From the IMG/VR virus record IMGVR_UViG_3300014913_000006: DNA of 64,000 bases. The stretch is one strand, 5' to 3'. A program made the translations under genes and the position numbers. Below, piece by piece: positions 3,625 through 56,508 of this stretch (its first letter is position 1; each line of letters starts with the position of its first letter). Origin of the DNA: a virus. A model generated the notes under the pieces. That model had not been told where the DNA came from. It searched no databases and saw only the letters and a program-made list of their open reading frames with translations.

Positions 3625-3631
3625 GGTTTTC

Positions 3632-3662
3632 GTGGAACAAAAGGCTTGGTTGGATGTACAAT
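3632..3662 (+). promoter_or_regulatory. Phage promoter copy 2 (GGAACA-N17-TACAAT)
   Basis: gtggaacaaaaggcttggttggatgtacaat; ATG follows 5 nt later. Confidence 0.75.
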
Positions 3663-3667
3663 AAGGT

Positions 3668-3883
3668 ATGAACCAGAAACAAGTCATAGCCAAGTTGAGA
3701 GCGATCCTTGATCGAGCGGATGTCGAGGCCGATGGTTTGGTCAATCGGAAAATATCGTCACAGCACGAGAGCGAGGTTGAAGTCCTGTTGGAGCATATCT
3801 CGCTGTTGGTGGCCGACCTGCGATTCAACGTCACAGCCACTCGGAACGAACTGTTTGAGGTGCGTTGCCTGCTCGAAGAGTAG
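3668..3883 (+). CDS. Hypothetical coiled-coil protein, probably leaderless
   Basis: ORF starts at the expected transcription start of promoter copy 2. Confidence 0.6.
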   Translation: MNQKQVIAKLRAILDRADVEADGLVNRKISSQHESEVEVLLEHISLLVADLRFNVTATRNELFEVRCLLEE

Positions 3884-3932
3884 GGGTTGTGTGTCTCTTT
3901 TTTTGCCCACCTTGGTTTTAAGGGACAAGAAA

Positions 3933-4454
3933 ATGAATGAAATCTGGAGGAATGCCGTTGGCTACGAAGATTCTTATCAGGTTTCAAGTCTTGGAAAAAT
4001 CAAGAGGACGGTTGGCGGAAGGGGCGTGTGTGTCGCTGGTCGGATACTCAAACCACAAACCAAACCCGATGGACATCTGCATGTTCGACTTCATAAAAAT
4101 GGAATAGGAACAACTCGGCTGATTCATCAGTTGGTTCTTGAGGCGTTTGTCGGCCCATGTCCTTTGGGTGTGGAAGTGAGACATTTGGACGGGAATGGAC
4201 ACAACAACAATCTGTCTAACCTAGTTTATGGCACCAGATCAGAGAACGTGTTTGATTCCGTTAAACATGGGGGTCGGGTGAATACTAGGGATTCTGGTCA
4301 TGGACAATCCAAGCTCTCAGAAAAGGCAATACCACAGATAAGAGAAATGCTGAGAGATGGATATACGCAGAAAGAGATAGCCAAGTTGTTTGGTGTCGGA
4401 CGAACAACCATCCAAAAGATTCATAACGGCCAAAGTTGGAAACACGTTAAATAG
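3933..4454 (+). CDS. NUMOD4-HNH homing endonuclease with C-terminal HTH
   Basis: EIWRNAVGYEDSYQVSSLG (NUMOD4); VRHLDGNGHNNNLSNL (HNH). Confidence 0.9.
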   Translation: MNEIWRNAVGYEDSYQVSSLGKIKRTVGGRGVCVAGRILKPQTKPDGHLHVRLHKNGIGTTRLIHQLVLEAFVGPCPLGVEVRHLDGNGHNNNLSNLVYGTRSENVFDSVKHGGRVNTRDSGHGQSKLSEKAIPQIREMLRDGYTQKEIAKLFGVGRTTIQKIHNGQSWKHVK

Positions 4455-4464
4455 GAGAATATTG

Positions 4465-6024
4465 ATGACAGAATTCCACGAAAACATGTGTGACTACATT
4501 TGTTCTGGTCATGCACTGTTGCACGTCGATACCTTCGAGAAGGATCGTGCCATCAGTGAGATCATAGATGTAGCAGAGGCCACAGATCGAAAGGTCCATA
4601 TCTGGTCTATTGCGCAGGGGTGGACAGGCGTGAAGGGCACGTCGGTCTGCGAGGTCAAAGAGACAGCCCCGGTTGAAGATCAACTTCGGGCAATCCTCGA
4701 CTTCCCAGAGGGTGTCATTTGTGTGTTGCGTGACTTCGGTGGGTATCTGAAGCACGAAACATACCCAGGCTACGACATCGTCATCGGTTGGCTGGACGAA
4801 CTTCGCAGAATCGTGTCGTCAGTCAGGCAGACCATCGTCTTCGTCGGGCCGGATTTCAACATCCCCAAGGCGCTGCTTCACGACATCACACAGATCGACT
4901 TCAGCCTCCCCGACAACGAACAGATCGGCGAACGAATCAAGTTTGTGTGTAGCGATGTTACAAAAGCGGATGGAACAAAGTTCAAGCCCAACAAGGCTAT
5001 CATCCCACAGATCGTCGATGCATGTCGTGGCATGACTTCGCAACAGACAGTTGACAGAGTGGCGTTGGCGCTGCGTAAACACAAAGACTTGGACTCCGAC
5101 GCTGTGCGCACCATCATCAGGGAAAAGGCTGGTGTCATCCGTGCATCTGGCCTACTGACCTACATCGAACCACCGAAGGGTGGGCTGGCTAACGTTGGTG
5201 GGTACGATGCATTGAAAGAACACGTCTTGCTCGATCAGCCATGTTTCACCCAGGATGCAAGAGACTTCGGCATCGAATTCCCACGAGGTCTGATGTTGGT
5301 TGGTATTCCAGGTTGTGGGAAGACGCTGTTGTCACTGGCAATAGCATCGGAACTCGGCCTGCCTCTTGTTGCTATGGATGTGGGCAATCTGATGGACAAG
5401 TTCGTCGGTGAGTCTGAGAGCAACATGAGGGAAGCAATCAAGATGTTGGAAAGCATCTCGCCTTGCGTCTTGCAGCTTGACGAGATCGAAAAGGGTTTCG
5501 GTGGCGCTGGTGATATGGATGGTGGTGCGTCTCGTCGAGTCTTCGGCACCTTCATCAAGTGGCTCAACGACAGACAGTCTCCTGTGTACGCGGTTGCTAC
5601 TGCCAACCAAGTCCAGTCACTCCCACCTGAATTCTGTCGTAAAGGTCGTTTCGACGAAATCTATGGACTCGACCTACCCAACACGGTGGAGCGTCAGGAA
5701 ATCTTCTGTATCCATCTCTCCAAAAGGGATAGGGAACCGGGCTCTTTCGACTTGAAGGGGCTGGCAAAAGCAACAGGGGGGTACACTGGGGCTGACATCG
5801 AACAGATCATCAAGCTCGGTCTCAAGATTGCATTTGCAGCGGGTAAGCAACTCGGGCAGGAATACCTGGACCAAGCTGTTCCTGAAATCATTCCGTTGTC
5901 AAAGACGGAAGCACAACGTATCGCGGACACTAAGCAGTGGTGTGATCGCCACGCTAAGCCTGCGAATCCACCAAAGAAGAGCCCGCCACCCAAGATTGGA
6001 GGGAGGAAAGTCACACTTAGTTAG
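4465..6024 (+). CDS. Ycf46-like AAA+ ATPase
   Basis: Walker A GIPGCGKT, Walker B LQLDEIEK, LPPEFCRKGRFDE; degenerate N-terminal AAA domain typical of Ycf46. Confidence 0.88.
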   Translation: MTEFHENMCDYICSGHALLHVDTFEKDRAISEIIDVAEATDRKVHIWSIAQGWTGVKGTSVCEVKETAPVEDQLRAILDFPEGVICVLRDFGGYLKHETYPGYDIVIGWLDELRRIVSSVRQTIVFVGPDFNIPKALLHDITQIDFSLPDNEQIGERIKFVCSDVTKADGTKFKPNKAIIPQIVDACRGMTSQQTVDRVALALRKHKDLDSDAVRTIIREKAGVIRASGLLTYIEPPKGGLANVGGYDALKEHVLLDQPCFTQDARDFGIEFPRGLMLVGIPGCGKTLLSLAIASELGLPLVAMDVGNLMDKFVGESESNMREAIKMLESISPCVLQLDEIEKGFGGAGDMDGGASRRVFGTFIKWLNDRQSPVYAVATANQVQSLPPEFCRKGRFDEIYGLDLPNTVERQEIFCIHLSKRDREPGSFDLKGLAKATGGYTGADIEQIIKLGLKIAFAAGKQLGQEYLDQAVPEIIPLSKTEAQRIADTKQWCDRHAKPANPPKKSPPPKIGGRKVTLS

Positions 6025-6030
6025 GAGTGT

Positions 6031-6549
6031 GTGATGACAGGGCGATGGAAAGATATTGATAGCCACCAAGGTATATACCAAGTATCTGATCTTGGTCGTG
6101 TCAAAAGGATAATTGATGGATGGGGAACCAAGGCTGGTAAAATACTTAAACCGCGAATTAAGAGTGATCAATATCTTCAAGTTGCCCTATGGTACAACGG
6201 AAAACGAATTGATAGACCAATTCATCGATTGGTTTTAGAAGCCTTCGTTGGCCCACAACCAAAAGGAATGGAGTGTCGTCGCCCAGATGGTGCCAGACAA
6301 AATAATCATCTAACAAATTTACAATGGGGAACTCGCTCTGAAAATCAAAGAGACTCAATTCGACACAATACCAAATACCAACCACGGGGAGAACAACATG
6401 GTATGACCAAAACAACAGCAATCCAAATCAAACACGTCAAACAATTGTTGGCGAAAGGCCATACAGCAAAAGAGATTGCTGTCGTCACAGGAGTAGGCGT
6501 CCACGTCATTTATGACGCGAAGAGAAACAAAACGTGGAAACATATTTAA
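6031..6549 (+). CDS. NUMOD4-HNH homing endonuclease, active site altered
   Basis: NUMOD4 N-terminus; CRRPDG where the paralogs have RHLDG. Confidence 0.85.
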   Translation: MMTGRWKDIDSHQGIYQVSDLGRVKRIIDGWGTKAGKILKPRIKSDQYLQVALWYNGKRIDRPIHRLVLEAFVGPQPKGMECRRPDGARQNNHLTNLQWGTRSENQRDSIRHNTKYQPRGEQHGMTKTTAIQIKHVKQLLAKGHTAKEIAVVTGVGVHVIYDAKRNKTWKHI

Positions 6550-6562
6550 GGAGAACAAAGAT

Positions 6563-7573
6563 ATGAGTGTAACAACCATAAACAAATCAAAAGTAGATCG
6601 AGATACAATTAACCTCTTCGAGGTCGGCTGTCTCGTCAATCTAAAAATTCGTATGTGGAGTGCTCGCAAGATGCTCACAAGAACCGATTTGGTTCGTGTG
6701 GGCTATGATCCTAACAACTTACCAGAAGAAATTGTCAATCTAGGAAGAAAACTTTTGGTACCAAAATCTGAGTTGCAAGCACTAACTCAAATTGAACAAA
6801 GAGCAAGGAAATCGCTAGAAAGATGGTCAACACCATTTGGTATTAGTAGTTCCCACTTCGTCCCAGCAAAGATGCTGCCGACAGTCGAGCAGCAGATCGG
6901 AGGACTCAAGGAAGAGTTTTTCAAGCGGGTGGACAGCTTCATTACTCGTTTCGATGACCTGATCAGCAAGGCCAGAGACGCACACCCGGATTTCTGGGAC
7001 AAGTGTCTGAAGGGCCACTACCCGGCCAACCCCAAGGCTCTACGTGAACGGTTCCAGTTTGACTGGTTCACATTCCGAATTGCTGGGATGGGGTCTATCG
7101 AGGCGACGAGCGCCGAAGAGGTAGTCGCCCGGCAGAAGGTGCAAGACGAGAAAGAGGCTGAGTTGCGGCGTCAGATGCAGGCGGAAGTCGGTGAGTTTGT
7201 TGGCGAGTACGTGACTTCTATGCGGGATGAGACAGTACGGTTCTGTGAGCTTATGGCGGCTCGCATCAACGGTAAGCCGTATGGCGACGAGGATGACGCG
7301 AAAAAGCTCACGCCGAAATCGATCTCGTGCTTCCGCAACTACGTCGATCGCTTCAGGTCGATGAATATCTTTGGGGACGGCGAGGTTGAGAAGATGCTCG
7401 TCGAATTCAGAGAGACGTTCTTGGATTCAGGGGTCGCCCCGAAAGACTTCGAATCGGCTACAGTCAAGGGTAGTGTCACCAAGTCGCTCGAAGCTATTCG
7501 TAACAAGGCTGCTGCTGAAGGTCAGAGTGGAAGCCAGTTTATTGGCGAACTAAAACGAAAGGTGATTCTGTAA
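6563..7573 (+). CDS. DUF3150-like helical protein
   Basis: AAGGAG RBS; LVNLKIRMWSARKML...LGRKLLVPK pattern; lies next to the Ycf46-like AAA. Confidence 0.6.
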   Translation: MSVTTINKSKVDRDTINLFEVGCLVNLKIRMWSARKMLTRTDLVRVGYDPNNLPEEIVNLGRKLLVPKSELQALTQIEQRARKSLERWSTPFGISSSHFVPAKMLPTVEQQIGGLKEEFFKRVDSFITRFDDLISKARDAHPDFWDKCLKGHYPANPKALRERFQFDWFTFRIAGMGSIEATSAEEVVARQKVQDEKEAELRRQMQAEVGEFVGEYVTSMRDETVRFCELMAARINGKPYGDEDDAKKLTPKSISCFRNYVDRFRSMNIFGDGEVEKMLVEFRETFLDSGVAPKDFESATVKGSVTKSLEAIRNKAAAEGQSGSQFIGELKRKVIL

Positions 7574-8169
7574 TGAAGATAACACAATGGGAAGCCGGTG
7601 ACAATCCTCACGAAGACAGTGGTAGGATGGCTCTGGTTACAAAACAGGAGGCTCTCCAGATCATCCGAAGTCTAGTCCATCAGCTAGAGAGGCTAGACGC
7701 CGGTCTGGACCCCAACGACGTGAGGGTTGAGTTCTATCCACACGATGAGAAGTATGGATACTTCAGCATCGCTATCTCCAACGACCCCGAGGCTCTGTTC
7801 CGCAGAGAAAAGGTGGGAGATGTCGATTGTGCCTGCGGCTGTCCTGGGGATTGTTCAATGGCTGATGTCGCCAAGTGTGGCCGCTGTGGCACGAACAACC
7901 GTGTCGAAGACGACACCTTGTGTGGAGATTGTATCGATGACGACACTTGTCTAGACTGCGATGAGCGATATGAAGATTGCTGTTGCGACGATGAATATGG
8001 TGATAATGATTGCATCAACTGCGGACTCGACCCAGAAACGTGCGGTTGTTGGGATCATAGCGATGGCGATTGTCAGGATGAACTTGATCAAGAGAATGTC
8101 GCCGACACGTTCCGTCCGATGAACGCTTTCGTTCGGGCAAGGTGGCTTATGGCAAGGAGAAAGCTTTGA
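7573..8169 (+). CDS. Cys/Asp-rich metal-binding hypothetical protein
   Basis: TAATG coupling; several CxxC and CxC motifs within an acidic tract. Confidence 0.65.
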   Translation: MKITQWEAGDNPHEDSGRMALVTKQEALQIIRSLVHQLERLDAGLDPNDVRVEFYPHDEKYGYFSIAISNDPEALFRREKVGDVDCACGCPGDCSMADVAKCGRCGTNNRVEDDTLCGDCIDDDTCLDCDERYEDCCCDDEYGDNDCINCGLDPETCGCWDHSDGDCQDELDQENVADTFRPMNAFVRARWLMARRKL

Positions 8170-8255
8170 TGCTCAAACACGGTCACGCTTGTAATAATGA
8201 TACATCAGAGAAGGCTCTCACGACACCCGCAAAAAAAGAAACGGAGAAACAAAAA
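8169..8255 (+). pseudogene. Minimal HNH endonuclease remnant
   Basis: MLKHGHACNNDT|SEKALTTPAKK: the KHGH motif joined to the SAEKALTTPAK tail seen in the intact HNH at 48862. Confidence 0.6.
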
Positions 8256-8669
8256 TTGAGTCGCTACTGCACCGTAAATACGGAGTTCAAGGACGGCGAT
8301 GCCCTTGTCGACGCCCTCATGGAAACCAGCAAATGGACTGCGGCACAGATAGAGGTCCACGAGACCCCACAGAACCTATTCGGGTATCATGGTGACAAGC
8401 GTTCTCAGAAGGCACATATCATCATACGTCGCCAGCATGTGGGTGGTGCCTCCAACGACCTTGGATTTGTCAAGAGTGAGAATGGCAACTACAAGGCAAT
8501 CGTATCTGAGTACGATTCTCGCAGGTATGGCAAAGATTGGGTTGGCCGACTGACGGGAAACTATGCGTACCACAAGGTGCGAAGAGAACAGGAGGCTCGT
8601 GGTCGTCATGTTTCCAGGGAACGTTGTCCAAACGGTCGTCAACGAGTTGTGGTCACTGGCTACAGGTAG
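8256..8669 (+). CDS. DUF1257 (Ycf35-like) protein
   Basis: TTG start after GGAG; SRYCTVNTEFKD...ALVDAL...NDLGF...YKAIVSEYD. Confidence 0.75.
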   Translation: MSRYCTVNTEFKDGDALVDALMETSKWTAAQIEVHETPQNLFGYHGDKRSQKAHIIIRRQHVGGASNDLGFVKSENGNYKAIVSEYDSRRYGKDWVGRLTGNYAYHKVRREQEARGRHVSRERCPNGRQRVVVTGYR

Positions 8670-8674
8670 AAAAC

Positions 8675-9052
8675 ATGGCTCTGAAATTCATCAACGAAGA
8701 TACCGGTGTTTTGAAAACGGCGGTGTTCTGCTTCACTGGTAGGTCGCCGAAGACTCGCCCTGAGATGGAAGCTATCGCTATAAATGCTGGGGCACAAGTC
8801 TCCTCGTCCGTGAATGGACGGACAACTATCTTAGTTATAGCTGACGCAAATAGTCTGTCATCCAAAGCACAGAGCGCAAGAGATAGGGATATCGACCTAA
8901 TCAGTCCAGCACAGTTCTTTCTAATGTGCGGCTCTGCCACTGCGTCCAATGGCGATGGCCGAATCAGCCAGGTCAAGATCAGGAAACCTAAGCCGGTCAC
9001 CAAACCAACAGAGAAGAGGAAGCATTCGTCTGTTCGACGAATAGAACTATAG
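8675..9052 (+). CDS. Stand-alone BRCT domain protein
   Basis: FCFTG...TRPEME...AGAQVSSSVNGRTTILV...SSKAQSA, like the BRCT of NAD-dependent ligase. Confidence 0.85.
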   Translation: MALKFINEDTGVLKTAVFCFTGRSPKTRPEMEAIAINAGAQVSSSVNGRTTILVIADANSLSSKAQSARDRDIDLISPAQFFLMCGSATASNGDGRISQVKIRKPKPVTKPTEKRKHSSVRRIEL

Positions 9053-9065
9053 GGAATTACTGTAC

Positions 9066-10661
9066 ATGATAATTGGAAAAGCTACACAAGATGGAACACC
9101 TATTGTTGAATTAAGACCATATTCTCGCAAATTGGTTCGTAGAAAATGCGACAACTGTGGAAAAATTGATTGGACAAGATATGGACACATCACTACCTGT
9201 AGACTTAGACACCATAGACAATCTGATTATTGCCACAAGTGTGGAACTAGTCTGGCTACAAAAGGAGATAAAAATGCAGCAAAAAGGCCCGAAGTGCGGC
9301 AAAAAATATCGAAAGCATTGAGGGGGAAAAGCAGGAAATTCAAGGACGGGGAAAATCCCAGAATACTTACCAGAAAAAAAACAACCACAGGCTCCATATT
9401 GGTGTATGATGAACAACAAAAACAATACCAACACGAACACAGAATGGTTGTATCTCATCATATTGGAAGAGAACTCACAAATGAAGAAGTTGTTCATCAT
9501 ATAAATGGTGACAAGACCAATAATGAAATAGATAATCTTCATCTCTTCCAAGATAATAGAGCACATATGAAGTGTCACCAACAACTACAACATATCGCAC
9601 TTGATCTGGTTGAGCGAGAAATTGTTCTTTTCGATAAAAATACGGGTCAGTATTTTGTTGACCCAACACTTAGTCTGCATCGCCCACAATATAGCGTCGG
9701 ATTTAACCAGGTTAGTATAGCTCAAGCAAAAAATGTTTGCGAATCTAGATTGTCTGTGGATGTGTCGTCGGAAATAATTCGTGGAATTACGAGACCCATA
9801 CCAATATTGGCATCCAATATGTCAACAGTGGTAGACCCAGATTTCTGTATTGCTCTGTATCGCTTTGGTGCTCTGGGTATAATGCACAGGGCATTACCAG
9901 CAGGAGAAATAGCTGATTCCATCAAGAAAATAGCAGAGCAATGCGAAATAGTTTGTGCCTCAGTTGGCGTAGATAAAAACAGTTTTGATGAAGCAAAATC
10001 AAACATCAGAAACGGTGCCAACGTAATTTTTGTCGATGTCGCACATGGCTATAGCAATGCGGTTCTCACCCTAGGCAAAAGAATTAAACACTACTCACCA
10101 TCAACCAAAATAGTTATAGGAAATACCATCAATCCAGATATCATTCTTGAGTCATATGATTTTGTCGACGCCATCAAAGTGGGTATAGGCCAAGGACTTG
10201 CGTGCGAGACCGCAATAACTGCTGGATGCACAGAACGACAATTTTCTGCTGTATTAAAATTCAAGGCACTAGCAGCTAAGTTTGGAATTCCTGTTATAAG
10301 TGATGGTGGAATAAGAAAACCATCCGACTTTGTTAAAGCAATAGCTGCTGGAGCCAGTTCTGTTATGGCCGGATCAATATTTTGTGCATGTCCAGAAAGC
10401 GCTGGACAGACCGTCGTCATAAACGGCATGTCTAAAAAGCAATATGCCGGTATGGCATCGAGATTTATCCAGGAAAAATGGAAAGGCAGACTAAAACCAG
10501 GCACATGCCCAGAGGGCAAAATCATATACCTAGATATCGGAGAAAACGCATGTTCATTGTTAGAGAGATATGGAGGAGCATTGCGTTCTGGTATAACATA
10601 TGCTGGAGCTAATAATATATCATCGTTCCACAGAAATGTAAAATTTTTGTTTACCAAATAG
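9066..10661 (+). CDS. HNH endonuclease fused to an IMP dehydrogenase/GMP reductase domain
   Basis: N-terminal EHRMV...VVHHINGDKTNNEIDNL; C-terminal PILASNM, DVAHG, KVGIGQGLACET, ISDGGIR, YAGMAS. Confidence 0.85.
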   Translation: MIIGKATQDGTPIVELRPYSRKLVRRKCDNCGKIDWTRYGHITTCRLRHHRQSDYCHKCGTSLATKGDKNAAKRPEVRQKISKALRGKSRKFKDGENPRILTRKKTTTGSILVYDEQQKQYQHEHRMVVSHHIGRELTNEEVVHHINGDKTNNEIDNLHLFQDNRAHMKCHQQLQHIALDLVEREIVLFDKNTGQYFVDPTLSLHRPQYSVGFNQVSIAQAKNVCESRLSVDVSSEIIRGITRPIPILASNMSTVVDPDFCIALYRFGALGIMHRALPAGEIADSIKKIAEQCEIVCASVGVDKNSFDEAKSNIRNGANVIFVDVAHGYSNAVLTLGKRIKHYSPSTKIVIGNTINPDIILESYDFVDAIKVGIGQGLACETAITAGCTERQFSAVLKFKALAAKFGIPVISDGGIRKPSDFVKAIAAGASSVMAGSIFCACPESAGQTVVINGMSKKQYAGMASRFIQEKWKGRLKPGTCPEGKIIYLDIGENACSLLERYGGALRSGITYAGANNISSFHRNVKFLFTK

Positions 10662-10671
10662 GAGACGTAAT

Positions 10672-10941
10672 ATGAAAGTCGTTCTAGAAATTGACAAAGA
10701 AGGAAATATGCATGGTTTATACACAGACGAGATCGACCTCTTTTCTGTCGGGCGGGTTACCGACGTGCGTAAGGCGTCGAATGTGGAGTTCAATCAAAAC
10801 GAGCAAGTGTGGGAGGTATCATCACTGGGTGGGGATATCTTGTATAAGAATTCCAACCGCAACGCAGCAATCGACTGGGAAATAGTGGCGTTTTCGCCCG
10901 GTGGTTCACATTATGAACAACCGAAGATATCAAGGCGTTGA
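10672..10941 (+). CDS. Conserved hypothetical protein associated with the Ycf46/DUF1257 module
   Basis: AGGAG RBS; GLYTDEIDLFSVGRV...RKASNVEF. Confidence 0.65.
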   Translation: MKVVLEIDKEGNMHGLYTDEIDLFSVGRVTDVRKASNVEFNQNEQVWEVSSLGGDILYKNSNRNAAIDWEIVAFSPGGSHYEQPKISRR

Positions 10942-10960
10942 GAAAACAAAGGAGAAAGTC

Positions 10961-11131
10961 ATGAGAAAGGTACACTACAAAGTCGTACTTGATGTGCTTG
11001 TCCACGAGGATGAGGAAGCGGACGGGAACGAGGCTTTGATGTGCGCCGACTTCTTTCCTAACGTGGATGGAGACGACCTTGATGTGATGGACGTTGAGAT
11101 CGAGAGTGTCGAGGCGACTGACTCACGATAG
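10961..11131 (+). CDS. Small acidic hypothetical protein
   Basis: AAGGAG RBS. Confidence 0.6.
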   Translation: MRKVHYKVVLDVLVHEDEEADGNEALMCADFFPNVDGDDLDVMDVEIESVEATDSR

Positions 11132-11141
11132 GAGAAAATTC

Positions 11142-11378
11142 ATGAAAGTGTTCAAAGGATGGTATCGCAAGTCATTGGTTTCCCGAAACATTGTCTGGCA
11201 TCGTGTCTCTCATGTTGATTCAATCCTAGAGAATCGACAAATGGCGCACACGGCGTGTGGAAGAAGTATCTCTACCACCAATTGTGATTTCGACATGAAA
11301 CCGAATCGCAAGTGTGTGCAATGTGAGAAGTCATCGGGAAGGATCGTAGAGACGGGTCGTGGGTTTGTGACGTGTTAG
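11142..11378 (+). CDS. Small zinc-binding hypothetical protein
   Basis: AGGAG RBS; WH...TACG...CVQC. Confidence 0.6.
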   Translation: MKVFKGWYRKSLVSRNIVWHRVSHVDSILENRQMAHTACGRSISTTNCDFDMKPNRKCVQCEKSSGRIVETGRGFVTC

Positions 11379-11480
11379 CGTCTAAGGCAAAGAAACGAAG
11401 AGGTGGCAAGGGACGCACGACAGAAACAGAGCGGATAGAGTGCTTCCTGGCACTCTTGACCAAAGCGGAGAAGTAACGAC

Positions 11481-11687
11481 ATGCGTGGAAAGAAACAGAT
11501 CGTGATTGATATAGACCCGGAAGGGAACTGTTCAATCGACGGTGAGGGATTTGTGGGGCCAGAGTGCGGTCACTTCATCGGGGAGATAGAAGAGTCTTTG
11601 GGTAAGCGGGTGTCACAAAAGGACAAACCGGAGTATCGTCAACGTCGCACTACCAGCAACAGGAATCGTCAAGTCGGAGGTAGGTAA
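11481..11687 (+). CDS. DUF2997 family protein
   Basis: IVIDIDPEGNCSIDGEGFVGPEC...IEESLG...KPEY. Confidence 0.85.
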   Translation: MRGKKQIVIDIDPEGNCSIDGEGFVGPECGHFIGEIEESLGKRVSQKDKPEYRQRRTTSNRNRQVGGR

Positions 11688-11875
11688 TGGCAAGCATCTT
11701 GAACAATGCAGCAACAAAGAAGTTCATCCTTGCGAAGTTCCAGAGTATGAGGCCGGGTATGCCGATCACTAGGGTGTCCAAGGACGCCTTGGAGAAGCTG
11801 GAAGCCCGTTTGCGAGCTTGGATCGTCGAAGAGGTACAGAGATGTCCGTCTATCGGAAAGACGTTCAAGCTCTAA
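11687..11875 (+). CDS. Small basic protein, possible histone fold
   Basis: GGAGGT RBS; RVSKDALEKLEARLRAWIVEEVQR...GKTF resembles the L1-alpha2-L2 of a histone fold. Confidence 0.5.
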   Translation: MASILNNAATKKFILAKFQSMRPGMPITRVSKDALEKLEARLRAWIVEEVQRCPSIGKTFKL

Positions 11876-11894
11876 GTGAATGTCGATGCTTGGT

Positions 11895-11987
11895 GCGATA
11901 CGGGGATTGGTCAAGTGGTGTCAAAGACCATCGGACCGTGGTTCGAGGCAACACACCCGTATGCGGGTTCGAATCCCGCTATCGGCT
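11895..11987 (+). tRNA. Degenerate tRNA-like element (pseudo-tRNA)
   Basis: D-arm ggtc-aagtggtgtcaaa-gacc and T-arm gcggg-ttcgaat-cccgc are canonical; acceptor stem and anticodon loop are not. Confidence 0.45.
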
Positions 11988-12067
11988 TTGGACCTTGCGC
12001 GGTTTGGTTCGCCGCCACCAGTCATCGCCAGTTTATCGTGTGTGTGTTTTCCGAACGGAGTCACGGA

Positions 12068-12229
12068 ATGGGAAAGAAGAAAACAGAAAGGCAAAAGCTC
12101 AACCAGATTGTCGTGGGTGGTCTACGGGAAGCAATCCGTGCCCATGGTCCGATAACCAAGTTGTTGATTGGCAGCGCCGCTAAGAGAATCACCGGCACGC
12201 TACTCGCCAAGGAGAAAAAGGATGGATGA
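12068..12229 (+). CDS. Small basic hypothetical protein
   Basis: GGAG RBS; MGKKKTERQKLNQ... Confidence 0.55.
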   Translation: MGKKKTERQKLNQIVVGGLREAIRAHGPITKLLIGSAAKRITGTLLAKEKKDG

Positions 12230-29226: not shown

Positions 29227-29753
29227 CCCTACTCTTTTGTGTCGTGCCAGGGTGCGTAGCACCTGAAGCGGTCAAGACTGAGATTCAGGGTATACGTAAT
29301 GACATGGGGCAGCTTGAGAAGGTGGTCGAGCAGAAGGCCGATAATACCGTGGTTGCTGAGCAGGTAGACGAAATCAACAACAAGATCGAGCAGACGACAC
29401 AGCTTGCTGAGGAACTATCCGTCTGGCGAAAAAGCGTGCAAGCGGAAACTATCAACTACGGTGGTGCTGGCTGGGTGGTGGTCGGAACCGGTGTCATAGC
29501 TTTGATCTTCATCGGGGCTGGTTTCTTGCTGATCCGAGCGTTTATGAAACGAGGTAGCCTGTTGACTCTCTTGACGTGTGCTGTGCAGAAGGTTGGGAAA
29601 CGTTCACCGGAAGCTGTACAGGCAATCAAAGAGCAACTGAAGGCCGAAGTGTCTAACGGTGGTCCGTTTACCGAGCAGGACCGAAAGAATCTTGGTCACT
29701 TCGCCAAGAAAAGAGGAACTTTCGCGGAACAAAAGCCAGATTCGGAGGTATAA
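29172..29753 (+). CDS. Lipoprotein with coiled coil and a downstream TM helix
   Basis: LALLFCVVPG|C; coiled-coil segment; GWVVVGTGVIALIFIGAGFLLI. Confidence 0.65.
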   Translation: MFKAKTKTASQGLAAAVLALLFCVVPGCVAPEAVKTEIQGIRNDMGQLEKVVEQKADNTVVAEQVDEINNKIEQTTQLAEELSVWRKSVQAETINYGGAGWVVVGTGVIALIFIGAGFLLIRAFMKRGSLLTLLTCAVQKVGKRSPEAVQAIKEQLKAEVSNGGPFTEQDRKNLGHFAKKRGTFAEQKPDSEV

Positions 29754-29754
29754 T
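29724..29754 (+). promoter_or_regulatory. Phage promoter copy 4
   Basis: gcggaacaaaagccagattcggaggtataat. Confidence 0.78.
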
Positions 29755-29772
29755 AAGGTACGAGGAAATGGT

Positions 29773-56440: not shown

Positions 56441-56445
56441 TTTTG

Positions 56446-56476
56446 GTGGAACAAACACTCGACTTGGACGTATAAT
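56446..56476 (+). promoter_or_regulatory. Phage promoter copy 6
   Basis: gtggaacaaacactcgacttggacgtataat, upstream of ssb. Confidence 0.8.
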
Positions 56477-56508
56477 AAGGTGAGTGGATTGGTCTCTTAA
56501 CCCTAAAG

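Follow-up and report, generated by a model that had tools for sequence, protein, structure and literature searches.

What do the members of a close-packed gene run on an uncultured phage, in which an AAA+ ATPase travels with three families of unassigned function, do together, and do they form a system at all? The run occupies positions 4465-11875 of a 64,000-nucleotide stretch of viral DNA (IMG/VR record IMGVR_UViG_3300014913_000006, here called the window), and an initial annotation, made from the sequence letters, had described it as a co-directional series of a Ycf46-type AAA+ ATPase, a DUF3150-like protein, a Cys-rich protein, DUF1257, a solo BRCT protein, a small conserved protein, DUF2997 and a small basic protein, interrupted by HNH insertions. 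In the open reading frame (ORF) list of the window all of these genes lie on the plus strand, and a check with hidden Markov models (HMMs) placed five domains (AAA, DUF3150, DUF1257, BRCT and DUF2997) above their Pfam gathering scores, which confirms both the run and the domain calls. We conclude, with some confidence on the anatomy, that an AAA+ machine which has so far gone undescribed recurs on mobile DNA and in some bacteria, and that the run is an intact copy of it into which HNH genes have inserted. Its genes fall into three layers: a universal core of AAA, DUF1257 and DUF2997; a layer of phage and mobile-element versions, made up of DUF3150 or a protein that takes its slot, together with the 89-residue protein p89; and lineage-specific add-ons. 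The core very probably forms one functional unit. We found no publication describing the AAA/DUF1257/DUF2997/DUF3150 set, and few papers mention these families.

The ATPase and the DUF1257-DUF2997 pair

The ATPase is built from an N-terminal domain of about 230 residues and a single active AAA module. Read from the translation, Walker A (GIPGCGKT), Walker B (LQLDE, in VLQLDEIEK), the arginine fingers of the second region of homology (RKGRFDE, in CRKGRFDE) and pore loop 1 (KFVG, in KFVGESE) are all intact, as in classical-clade AAA+ proteins, and the aromatic pore loop, a mark of polypeptide translocases, stands at the expected distance after Walker A. The PF00004 match covers positions 1-130 of 131, and the protein matches phrog_8638 along its full length (E 2.8e-120). 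In a profile search its closest solved chains were the D2 rings of Cdc48/p97 (E 1e-56), and because the motifs are intact and these rings are the closest solved relatives, a substrate-threading unfoldase would be the natural reading of the ATPase. The N-terminal 230 residues or so matched no Pfam family and no meaningful solved chain, the best being a replication factor C subunit at E 0.49; from its consensus alone, this domain might be read as a degenerate AAA+ domain. An exhaustive HMMER search with the ATPase returned 4,681 clusters at E<1e-30, and the best 150 of these were mostly full-length proteins of 490-560 residues with 33-55% identity. Among 30 clusters looked up by name none was a cyanobacterial Ycf46. 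The designation Ycf46-like is provisional; at about 500 residues Ycf46 would be similar in size to the phage ATPase. One full-length homologue lies after FtsK/SpoIIIE and WXG100-like genes in a type VII secretion-like context (L029:4197-8515, GCA_040364275.1), with no DUF1257 or DUF2997 nearby, which suggests that the motor family has another use as well.

DUF1257 scored 43.6 bits against the PF06868 cut-off of 22.2. Its gene could start at TTG 8256, ATG 8169 or GTG 8142, and the TTG is the most likely choice because GGAG lies 10 nt upstream of it and because the resulting 137 residues equal the length of most homologues. The structural model, at a predicted local distance difference test score (pLDDT) of 85, matches the fold of DUF1257 clusters in the Atlas with a template modelling (TM) score of 0.87. 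Against solved structures Foldseek found nothing at E<=0.001, the Atlas matches were only other DUF1257 clusters, and the best VIA match, a KA1 domain (Z 5.7, root-mean-square deviation 3.2 over 81 residues), was not above background. Profile searches of solved chains with DUF1257 and with DUF3150 returned nothing meaningful. The DUF1257 copies of phages and mobile elements that also carry DUF3150 end in VTGYR, and those linked to radical-SAM genes end in ARRWQ or ARKWGT. The radical-SAM activase-like neighbours had raised the idea that DUF1257 is a glycyl-radical protein, with its C-terminal RVxVTGYR compared to the RVxG[YF] loop; this candidate was rejected, as the motif is absent from the radical-SAM-linked copies.

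DUF2997 scored 36.9 bits against the PF11211 cut-off of 24.1. The protein has an N-terminal beta-hairpin (IVIDIDPEG), a cysteine at position 29, a KPEY motif and a basic tail that is presumably unstructured; G15 and C29 are invariant in 16 aligned copies from phages and bacteria. Co-folding of DUF1257 with DUF2997 gave an interaction prediction score from aligned errors (ipSAE) of 0.85, where the best of three controls gave 0.00. Of 80 solved complexes 58 reached that mark, as did 2 of 110 mismatched pairs, a calibration that holds only roughly here since our own alignments were used. The three runs agreed in at least 63% of contacts, with a partner pLDDT of at least 61, and the predicted contact is a beta-augmentation between residues 126-137 of DUF1257 and residues 4-17 of DUF2997. 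This prediction supports, but does not show, that DUF1257 and DUF2997 bind each other, and it bears out for this pair the expectation of the initial annotation that module proteins would be predicted to interact.

Recurrence of the gene set and of a C-terminal peptide

The uncultured phage that carries the run is about 160 kb in size, the DUF3150 protein of the window being listed on a contig of 160,364 bases. Ten related IMG/VR contigs have AAA proteins that are 60-89% identical to that of the window; four of these relatives were checked and proved to be phage genomes of 160-168 kb at or near completeness, direct terminal repeats being present in one. The order AAA, DUF3150, variable slot, DUF1257, p89, DUF2997, the basic protein p62 and the C-terminal part of the next ORF is kept in all ten, one of the contigs stopping ahead of DUF2997. 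At the DNA level the whole run matched none of 50,697 phage records, and no cultured phage is similar to it in DNA sequence. Word-based homologue searches gave, among the best 120 matches, only close relatives from within the family and no distant contexts.

Recurrence outside the family was judged from the neighbourhoods of 11 distant AAA homologues (33-42% identity), selected by the length of their contigs and without regard to their neighbours; in one case the contig was too short to show the neighbourhood. Eight of the ten informative neighbourhoods had DUF1257 and/or DUF2997 at a distance of no more than 8 kb from the AAA gene. The core triad is also present in four of five cultured phage groups, represented by Rhizobium phage L338C, Aeromonas phage HJ05, Pseudomonas phage SM1 and Rhodobacter phage RcKickapoo, where the order is AAA, a protein of about 210 residues, DUF1257, DUF2997 and a protein of about 120 residues, followed by replication genes. 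Bacterial copies, found in a Verrucomicrobiota metagenome-assembled genome (MAG), an Elusimicrobiota MAG and another MAG, are without DUF3150, and their operons often contain an NrdG/PflA-like radical-SAM protein or an AAA_14/DUF4143 ATPase. DUF2997 occurs in 2 of 151 Elusimicrobiota genomes, the second of which also has the ATPase and DUF1257 alongside, and further relatives come from Planctomycetaceae, NC10 and one archaeal record. The initial annotation had expected the gene set to occur elsewhere and had named Planctomycetota/Planctomycetes-Verrucomicrobia-Chlamydiae (PVC) mobile elements as a tentative host clue. The core, DUF3150 and p89 do recur in distant replicons, but the eight proteins then named are not one conserved set; relatives in Verrucomicrobiota and Planctomycetaceae agree with the PVC occurrence, but those in Elusimicrobiota, NC10 and the archaeal record remove its value as a host clue.

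The AAA_14/DUF4143 ATPase gene lies within the module both in Verrucomicrobiota (L022:6095-7330) and in Elusimicrobiota (L028:7231-8565), and could be either a recurrent partner or a selfish insertion that favours this operon. In the Verrucomicrobiota MAG (L022/L023, GCA_035390025.1) two Ycf46-like ATPases, DUF1257 and DUF2997 sit among GrpE and HSP70 genes, together with five FGE-sulfatase-domain genes, two Fer4_12 fragments and a kinase-AAA fusion; this cluster might represent a more extensive chaperone or conflict system around the same core.

A Heimdallarchaeota-labelled record (L032, CP070695.1:157006-177986, GCA_020353515.1; 4.94 Mb, about 35% GC) carries a block at 157-173 kb with JAB, ThiF, radical-SAM, the 71-residue protein p71, AAA, DUF3150, DUF1257, BRCT, a GMP-reductase-like (GMPR-like) gene, p89 and a p78-like gene, after which cellular genes follow. 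Proteins of the block are 30-68% identical to those of the window and their C-terminal tails are conserved; no DUF2997 was detectable in the island. The other genes of the window had no match in the first 200 kb and last 20 kb of the record apart from intein-like ones, and the whole record gave one weak Sigma70_r2 match, at 75 kb. Because the stretch from p71 to the p78-like gene recurs here without the window's other genes, it appears to persist or move as a unit in an unrelated replicon. The record itself may represent a mobile island of an archaeon or else a chimeric assembly.

DUF3150 scored 77.2 bits against the PF11348 cut-off of 24.9, with profile positions 5-178 of 257 covered; since the match ends at position 178, the C-terminal third of the protein diverges. 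It is 59-86% identical across all ten relatives, in each of which 10-130 nt separate it from the AAA gene. The model (pLDDT 76) has an N-terminal alpha/beta part and a C-terminal helical bundle, and fold searches gave generic four-helix-bundle matches only (Foldseek E >=0.15, VIA Z <=8.9), within the chance range for helical proteins. Beyond the family, DUF3150 stands beside or near the AAA gene, in varying order, in four independent phage- or mobile-element-like contigs (L021, L024, L027 and L031), the order in L021 being DUF3150-AAA-DUF1257-DUF2997. In L338C, HJ05, RcKickapoo and SM1 it is the 210-residue protein, here called a slot-mate, that comes after AAA; the slot-mates were considered as distant relatives of DUF3150 and rejected, at an hhalign probability of 0.8%.

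p89 is 54-66% identical in all ten relatives, and an HMM of its own family found it in four distant copies (L001, L003, L019 and L024), right after or close to DUF2997. By these family HMMs the 120-residue protein of L338C, HJ05 and SM1 and one ORF of L024 are the p89 homologues, and an Atlas search with p89 gave only viral and Verrucomicrobiota clusters, all without names. The N-terminus of p89 aligns with the strand-DG turn of DUF2997 over 18 columns (hhalign probability 76%), and this segment of DUF2997 is the part predicted to capture a strand. Because of this resemblance, p89 is a candidate receptor for the C-terminal tails described below.

In the window the last residues are RKVTLS for the ATPase, KRKVIL for DUF3150 and VRRIEL for BRCT. 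The pattern R[RK][VIL].[VILM], placed within 0-2 residues of the end, matches 3 of the 79 gene calls of the window, which are these three proteins, and in eight relatives it likewise matches only the AAA, DUF3150 and BRCT families. Among the relatives the residues that precede the AAA tail vary freely while the tail itself is kept. Of 131 distant full-length AAA proteins 14 carry it, compared to none of 131 in an internal control, and the unrelated 210-residue slot-mates end in RRAVKL, NRKLKL and GRKITI. A tail that is shared by unrelated proteins of one operon and exclusive to them may be best explained as a common docking peptide, and we infer this docking role from the distribution of the tail. 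Chance would be expected to give about 0.1 matches in 79 genes, a figure that is our own rough estimate from composition and not the result of a tool.

Lineage-specific genes and insertions in the run

The wider close-packed run extends over 3668-12229 of the plus strand (Table 1). Intergenic gaps are mostly -1 to 19 nt, the exceptions being gaps of 49, 86 and 102 nt in the run and one of 189 nt before the last gene. Five proteins are without any family (the Cys/Asp-rich protein, p89, p56, p78 and p62); the Cys/Asp-rich protein, p89 and p62 are all conserved in related phages, and p56 and p78 are two further small conserved genes that the initial annotation had missed.

Table 1. Features of the close-packed run and of the element ahead of it, in window coordinates.
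Feature	Position	Strand	Basis or remark
Promoter-like element	3629..3668	+	Pattern search and alignment of three copies
p71, predicted coiled-coil protein, 71 aa	3668..3883	+	No Pfam family
HNH_3/NUMOD4/HTH homing endonuclease	3933..4454	+	Pfam; mobile insertion
Ycf46-like classical-clade AAA+ ATPase, 519 aa	4465..6024	+	PF00004, E 1.2e-27
HNH_3/NUMOD4 homing endonuclease	6031..6549	+	Pfam; between the AAA and DUF3150 genes
DUF3150 protein, 336 aa	6563..7573	+	PF11348, E 1.6e-21
Cys/Asp-rich protein, 198 aa	7573..8169	+	ORF without family; variable slot
DUF1257 (Ycf35-like), 137 aa from most likely start TTG 8256	8256..8669	+	PF06868, E 3.8e-11
Solo BRCT protein, 125 aa	8675..9052	+	PF00533, E 6.2e-9
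HNH_3 fused to IMPDH/GMP-reductase-like TIM barrel	9066..10661	+	Pfam and NCBIfam, E 3.7e-62
p89, conserved protein, 89 aa	10672..10941	+	No Pfam family; conserved in relatives
p56, acidic protein, 56 aa	10961..11131	+	No family
p78, 78 aa	11142..11378	+	No family; apparently truncated copy
DUF2997 protein, 68 aa	11481..11687	+	PF11211, E 3.4e-9
p62, basic protein, 62 aa	11687..11875	+	Start overlaps DUF2997 stop by one base
p117 (ORF 11876-12229), conserved C-terminal ~55 residues	12065..12229	+	No family; last of family-conserved run

Three HNH_3 genes or domains interrupt the run: the two homing endonuclease genes and the first 200 residues of the HNH-GMPR fusion. The endonuclease gene ahead of AAA is absent from nine of the ten relatives, of which L010 keeps a remnant, and the one between AAA and DUF3150 is absent at that position from all ten. 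HNH genes that are missing from most relatives are mobile insertions, as the initial annotation had said, but the third is also an IMPDH/GMP-reductase fusion. Relatives usually have a GMPR-like gene of about 335-345 residues in the same slot, to which the fusion is about 28% identical, and the genes that flank the fusion are 60-90% identical to those of the relatives; the fusion looks like the resident gene replaced by a distant homologue with an HNH domain of its own. Since distant copies of the module do without GMPR, the fusion probably lies outside the machine, and the HNH genes and the GMPR-like gene would be passengers.

p71 is 55-79% identical in four relatives (L006, L009, L010 and L012), where it directly precedes AAA if the HNH insertion is absent. 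It also precedes AAA in the Heimdallarchaeota island, and it was not found in distant loci. The Cys/Asp-rich protein has no family in Pfam, PHROGs or PADLOC and no match in distant loci; five relatives have partial matches, in some of which only the C-terminal 50 residues or so are conserved. The BRCT domain scored 36.4 bits against the PF00533 cut-off of 21.3, its nearest models being BRCT domains of NAD-dependent ligases. Six of the ten relatives have a BRCT gene, as does the Heimdallarchaeota island, and no other distant copy was found to carry one; the tail tag of BRCT argues that it may have been recruited to the machine within the phage family. p56 occurs in three of eight related loci with labelled ORFs. 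p78 matches the N-terminal 76 residues of longer proteins, about 200 residues in size, in L004, L007 and L010 and is followed by a 102-nt non-coding gap, so the gene appears truncated. The p117 ORF is 52-79% identical in relatives over residues 55-117 only. In the distant module copies examined, p62, the Cys-rich protein, p56, p78 and p117 were not found, the p78-like gene of the Heimdallarchaeota island excepted.

p62 is 50-94% identical in nine relatives, and in L007 and L010, too, its start overlaps the DUF2997 stop by one base. Among solved structures the face-to-face histone HTkC (9F2C) matches p62 best, though weakly, at E 0.035. Schwab et al. 2024 described alpha3-truncated histones with an RxTxxxxD motif that is lost in some subtypes (PMC11390915). 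In length, in its RVS...alpha2 pattern and in ending shortly after the G-K-T-F motif, p62 resembles these proteins; its own motif, G-K/V-T-F-K-L, has no Arg and no Asp, RxTxxxxD being absent, and unlike the described phage histones (PMC11390915) it has no C-terminal tetramerisation helix. p62 is possibly a minimal alpha3-truncated histone fold. BRCT, p62 and the Cys-rich protein, which the initial annotation had counted as members of the set, would at best be lineage-specific additions and are withdrawn from it: none of them was found in the distant copies examined, save BRCT in the Heimdallarchaeota island.

The initial annotation had placed the run downstream of a promoter copy. Probably this is a conserved promoter-like element of about 45 nt, composed of TTTCGTGGAACAAA, a spacer of about 12 nt and GGAnGTAyAATAAGGT, which is also present at 29721-29760 and 56443-56482; alignment of the three copies gave 31 invariant columns of 76. 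The first copy precedes the first gene of the run and ends right ahead of that gene's start codon at 3668. The -10-like TATAAT of the element suggests a bacterial-type promoter; a generic sigma-70 scan of the region scored no better than shuffles.

Proposed mechanism, alternatives and meaning

We propose that the genes of the run specify a single AAA+ machine of several proteins and that the set is passed from one replicon to another as a whole, and we give the mechanism as written here about an even chance. The motor would be a classical AAA+ unfoldase of hexamer type, presumably hexameric in fact, from a Ycf46-like family with one active ring that bears the pore loops. Its obligate partner would be a DUF1257-DUF2997 heterodimer, held together by pairing of the N-terminal DUF2997 hairpin with the final beta-strand of DUF1257, which would leave the KPEY motif and tail of DUF2997 free. 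Phage and mobile-element versions would add DUF3150, or the unrelated protein of about 210 residues in its slot, plus p89. The tail R-[RK]-V/I-x-L/V/I on the motor, on DUF3150 and, in the phage family, on BRCT would act as a docking tag to a common receptor, for which the hairpin proteins DUF2997 and p89 or the N-domain of the motor are candidates. The machine would spend ATP on unfolding a client protein or pulling it apart, and it would do so early in infection, a timing that is presumed because most copies sit among early and replication genes. BRCT and p62 hint at, but do not show, a DNA-linked client, and that the client is linked to replication or chromatin is a tentative suggestion that we would not expect to hold. 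The initial annotation had proposed an ATP-driven remodelling machine with small adaptors, acting on nucleoprotein complexes. The former is still the most economical reading, given the intact motifs, the Cdc48/p97 D2 relatives and the predicted DUF1257-DUF2997 binding; for the latter the evidence is confined to the add-ons and to the adjacency of replication genes in many phages, and we do not uphold it.

Several observations weigh against a single tagged machine of this kind. The co-fold score is the confidence of the model in itself and not a measurement, and neither DUF1257 (Z 5.7) nor DUF3150 (Z 8.9) is convincingly like any solved fold, both values lying in the chance range. Two AAA homologues, L029 and P0370, have no DUF1257 or DUF2997 nearby, and in mycobacteriophage Catdawg, the sole cluster O genome searched, the ATPase was present with neither family. 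The gene order within the phage family may be synteny by descent, which taken alone proves little. As to the tail, its pattern was defined after the three tails had been seen, so that its exclusivity is partly circular, and it is not universal, the strict form being present in about a tenth of distant AAA proteins. A position among replication genes would also be expected from simple clustering of early genes.

The closest parallel in described biology comes from cyanobacteria. DUF2997 and ycf35 (DUF1257) are clustered there with the ferredoxin gene fed7, and a review of ferredoxins does not treat the families as a system (PMC4284462). ycf46 belongs to stress-induced three-gene operons in Synechocystis (slr0373-slr0374-slr0376) and S. 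elongatus (Synpcc7942_0416-0418), with links to CO2 use, KaiC contact and growth arrest (PMC7496141, PMC13683863). Together these are the same three Pfam families as the core, with DUF2997 and DUF1257 adjacent (PMC4284462), and a Synechococcus control genome indeed contains both of the latter. The way in which the papers name the genes suggests two separate cyanobacterial loci, one being the ATPase operon and the other the DUF2997-ycf35-fed7 cluster, whereas here and in other bacteria and phages the three genes stand together, and the phage versions add DUF3150, p89 and the tail tags.

The Cdc48/p97/VAT ATPases with their cofactors (Ufd1-Npl4, Shp1/p47 and PUB/PUL-domain proteins) are similar in having a classical-clade AAA module, an aromatic pore loop and small partners, and in that a C-terminal peptide of the motor may serve as a docking site. 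The C-terminal tail of p97 binds PUB/PUL domains, and HbYX tails dock proteasomal ATPases. The phage motor differs from Cdc48 in having one active ring and an N-domain without detectable relation to that of Cdc48; its partners belong to families with no known fold match, and the same tail on motor and partners is not a Cdc48 pattern. It is unlikely, though conceivable, that the set is the prokaryotic and phage counterpart of the Cdc48-cofactor network, in which DUF2997/p89-type hairpins would capture a C-terminal R-[RK]-φ-x-φ strand by beta-augmentation, as DUF2997 is predicted to do with the last strand of DUF1257; the tagged proteins would then be the motor and its interchangeable clients or cofactors (DUF3150, the 210-residue slot-mates and BRCT). 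Such a network, if real, would also account for the joint action of Ycf46 and Ycf35 in plastids and cyanobacteria, and the tail could be used as bait for the substrates of the machine.

A different use of the same parts would be a conflict system, which in bacteria would provide defence or stress-triggered growth arrest and which phages would employ for counter-defence, superinfection exclusion or host shut-off and not for their own replication. The distribution of the set is patchy, as the two DUF2997-carrying Elusimicrobiota genomes illustrate, its bacterial neighbours include AAA_14/DUF4143 ATPases (twice), PD-(D/E)XK_3, AbiEii-like and DNA methylase genes, one bacterial copy adjoins the HSP70/GrpE/FGE-sulfatase/kinase-AAA cluster, and the cyanobacterial ycf46 operon is linked to severe stress and growth arrest (PMC13683863, PMC7496141). 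The AAA domain also matches models of the defence ATPase IetA (PADLOC E 8e-23, NCBIfam E 6e-21), but this likeness to the IetAS system is limited to the shared domain (residues 266-461) and reaches 75 bits against a cut-off of 510; the N-domain and the partners differ, and there is no IetS-like protease in the run. No PADLOC model matches DUF1257, DUF2997, DUF3150 or p89, a nuclease, toxin or sensor domain is never a constant member, and many phage copies directly precede replication genes, and we regard a conflict system as rather unlikely. The likeness to Cdc48/p97 could instead mean that the ATPase is the segregase arm of a phage ubiquitin-like conjugation pathway, which extracts or unfolds E1/JAB-tagged proteins with DUF1257, DUF2997 and p89 recognising the tag. 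All four complete relatives (G001-G004) encode a ThiF/E1-like protein on the same strand, 2.9-6.6 kb ahead of the module, L010 has a weak Prok-JAB match ahead of its ThiF/E1-like gene (L010:816-2419), and in the Heimdallarchaeota island a JAB-ThiF pair precedes the module by 2-3.5 kb. The JAB match of L010 is below the Pfam cut-off, however, no ThiF, JAB or E2 gene was recorded beside the module in the ten distant neighbourhoods or in the four triad-carrying types of cultured phage, and the window has no E1, JAB or Ubl gene left of the module, the homologous region lying about 1.5-3 kb before its start; we find this reading improbable.

We are equally doubtful of a redox or iron-sulfur role, in which the ATPase and the DUF1257-DUF2997 pair would serve the maturation, repair or regulation of a radical-SAM or ferredoxin-dependent enzyme, the Cys-rich protein filling the slot of that enzyme in the phage. 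An NrdG/PflA-like radical-SAM protein of about 200 residues is encoded inside the operon in two bacterial loci and a third adjoins the two Fer4_12 fragments, a radical-SAM gene separates ThiF from the module in the Heimdallarchaeota island, one cysteine of DUF2997 is invariant, and in cyanobacteria the DUF2997 gene and ycf35 cluster with fed7 (PMC4284462). Against this, no radical-SAM or ferredoxin gene was recorded in the phage and mobile copies examined, and there is none within the run; the Cys-rich protein is poorly conserved even in the family, and RVxVTGYR as a glycyl-radical motif is not kept in the very copies that are linked to radical-SAM genes. It is very improbable, finally, that there is no single system and that the genes are syntenic neighbours co-inherited in one phage lineage. 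BRCT, p62, the Cys-rich protein, p56, p78, p117 and the GMPR-like gene do behave in this way, being found in the family only, one island apart, and HNH genes come and go. For the core this explanation is contradicted by its recurrence, in rearranged order, in unrelated replicons and bacteria; the co-fold score of DUF1257 with DUF2997 stands far above those of the controls, and three unrelated families of the run share a C-terminal peptide that is otherwise absent.

The preferred reading, a recurrent AAA+ machine, turns scattered orphan families into one testable object: DUF1257, DUF2997 and DUF3150, families without assigned function, travel with a Cdc48-like motor on phages, mobile elements and in several bacterial phyla. 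The exclusive C-terminal tag is an experimental handle that can be mutated or transplanted, and since cultured Pseudomonas, Rhizobium, Aeromonas and Rhodobacter phages carry the set, genetics is possible. The copy in the window adds lineage-specific, DNA-related partners, BRCT and a possible minimal histone, which hint at a chromatin or replication client and do not show it. Ycf46 and Ycf35 are conserved reading frames of plastids and cyanobacteria that are still without a mechanism, and the gene set described here may explain them.

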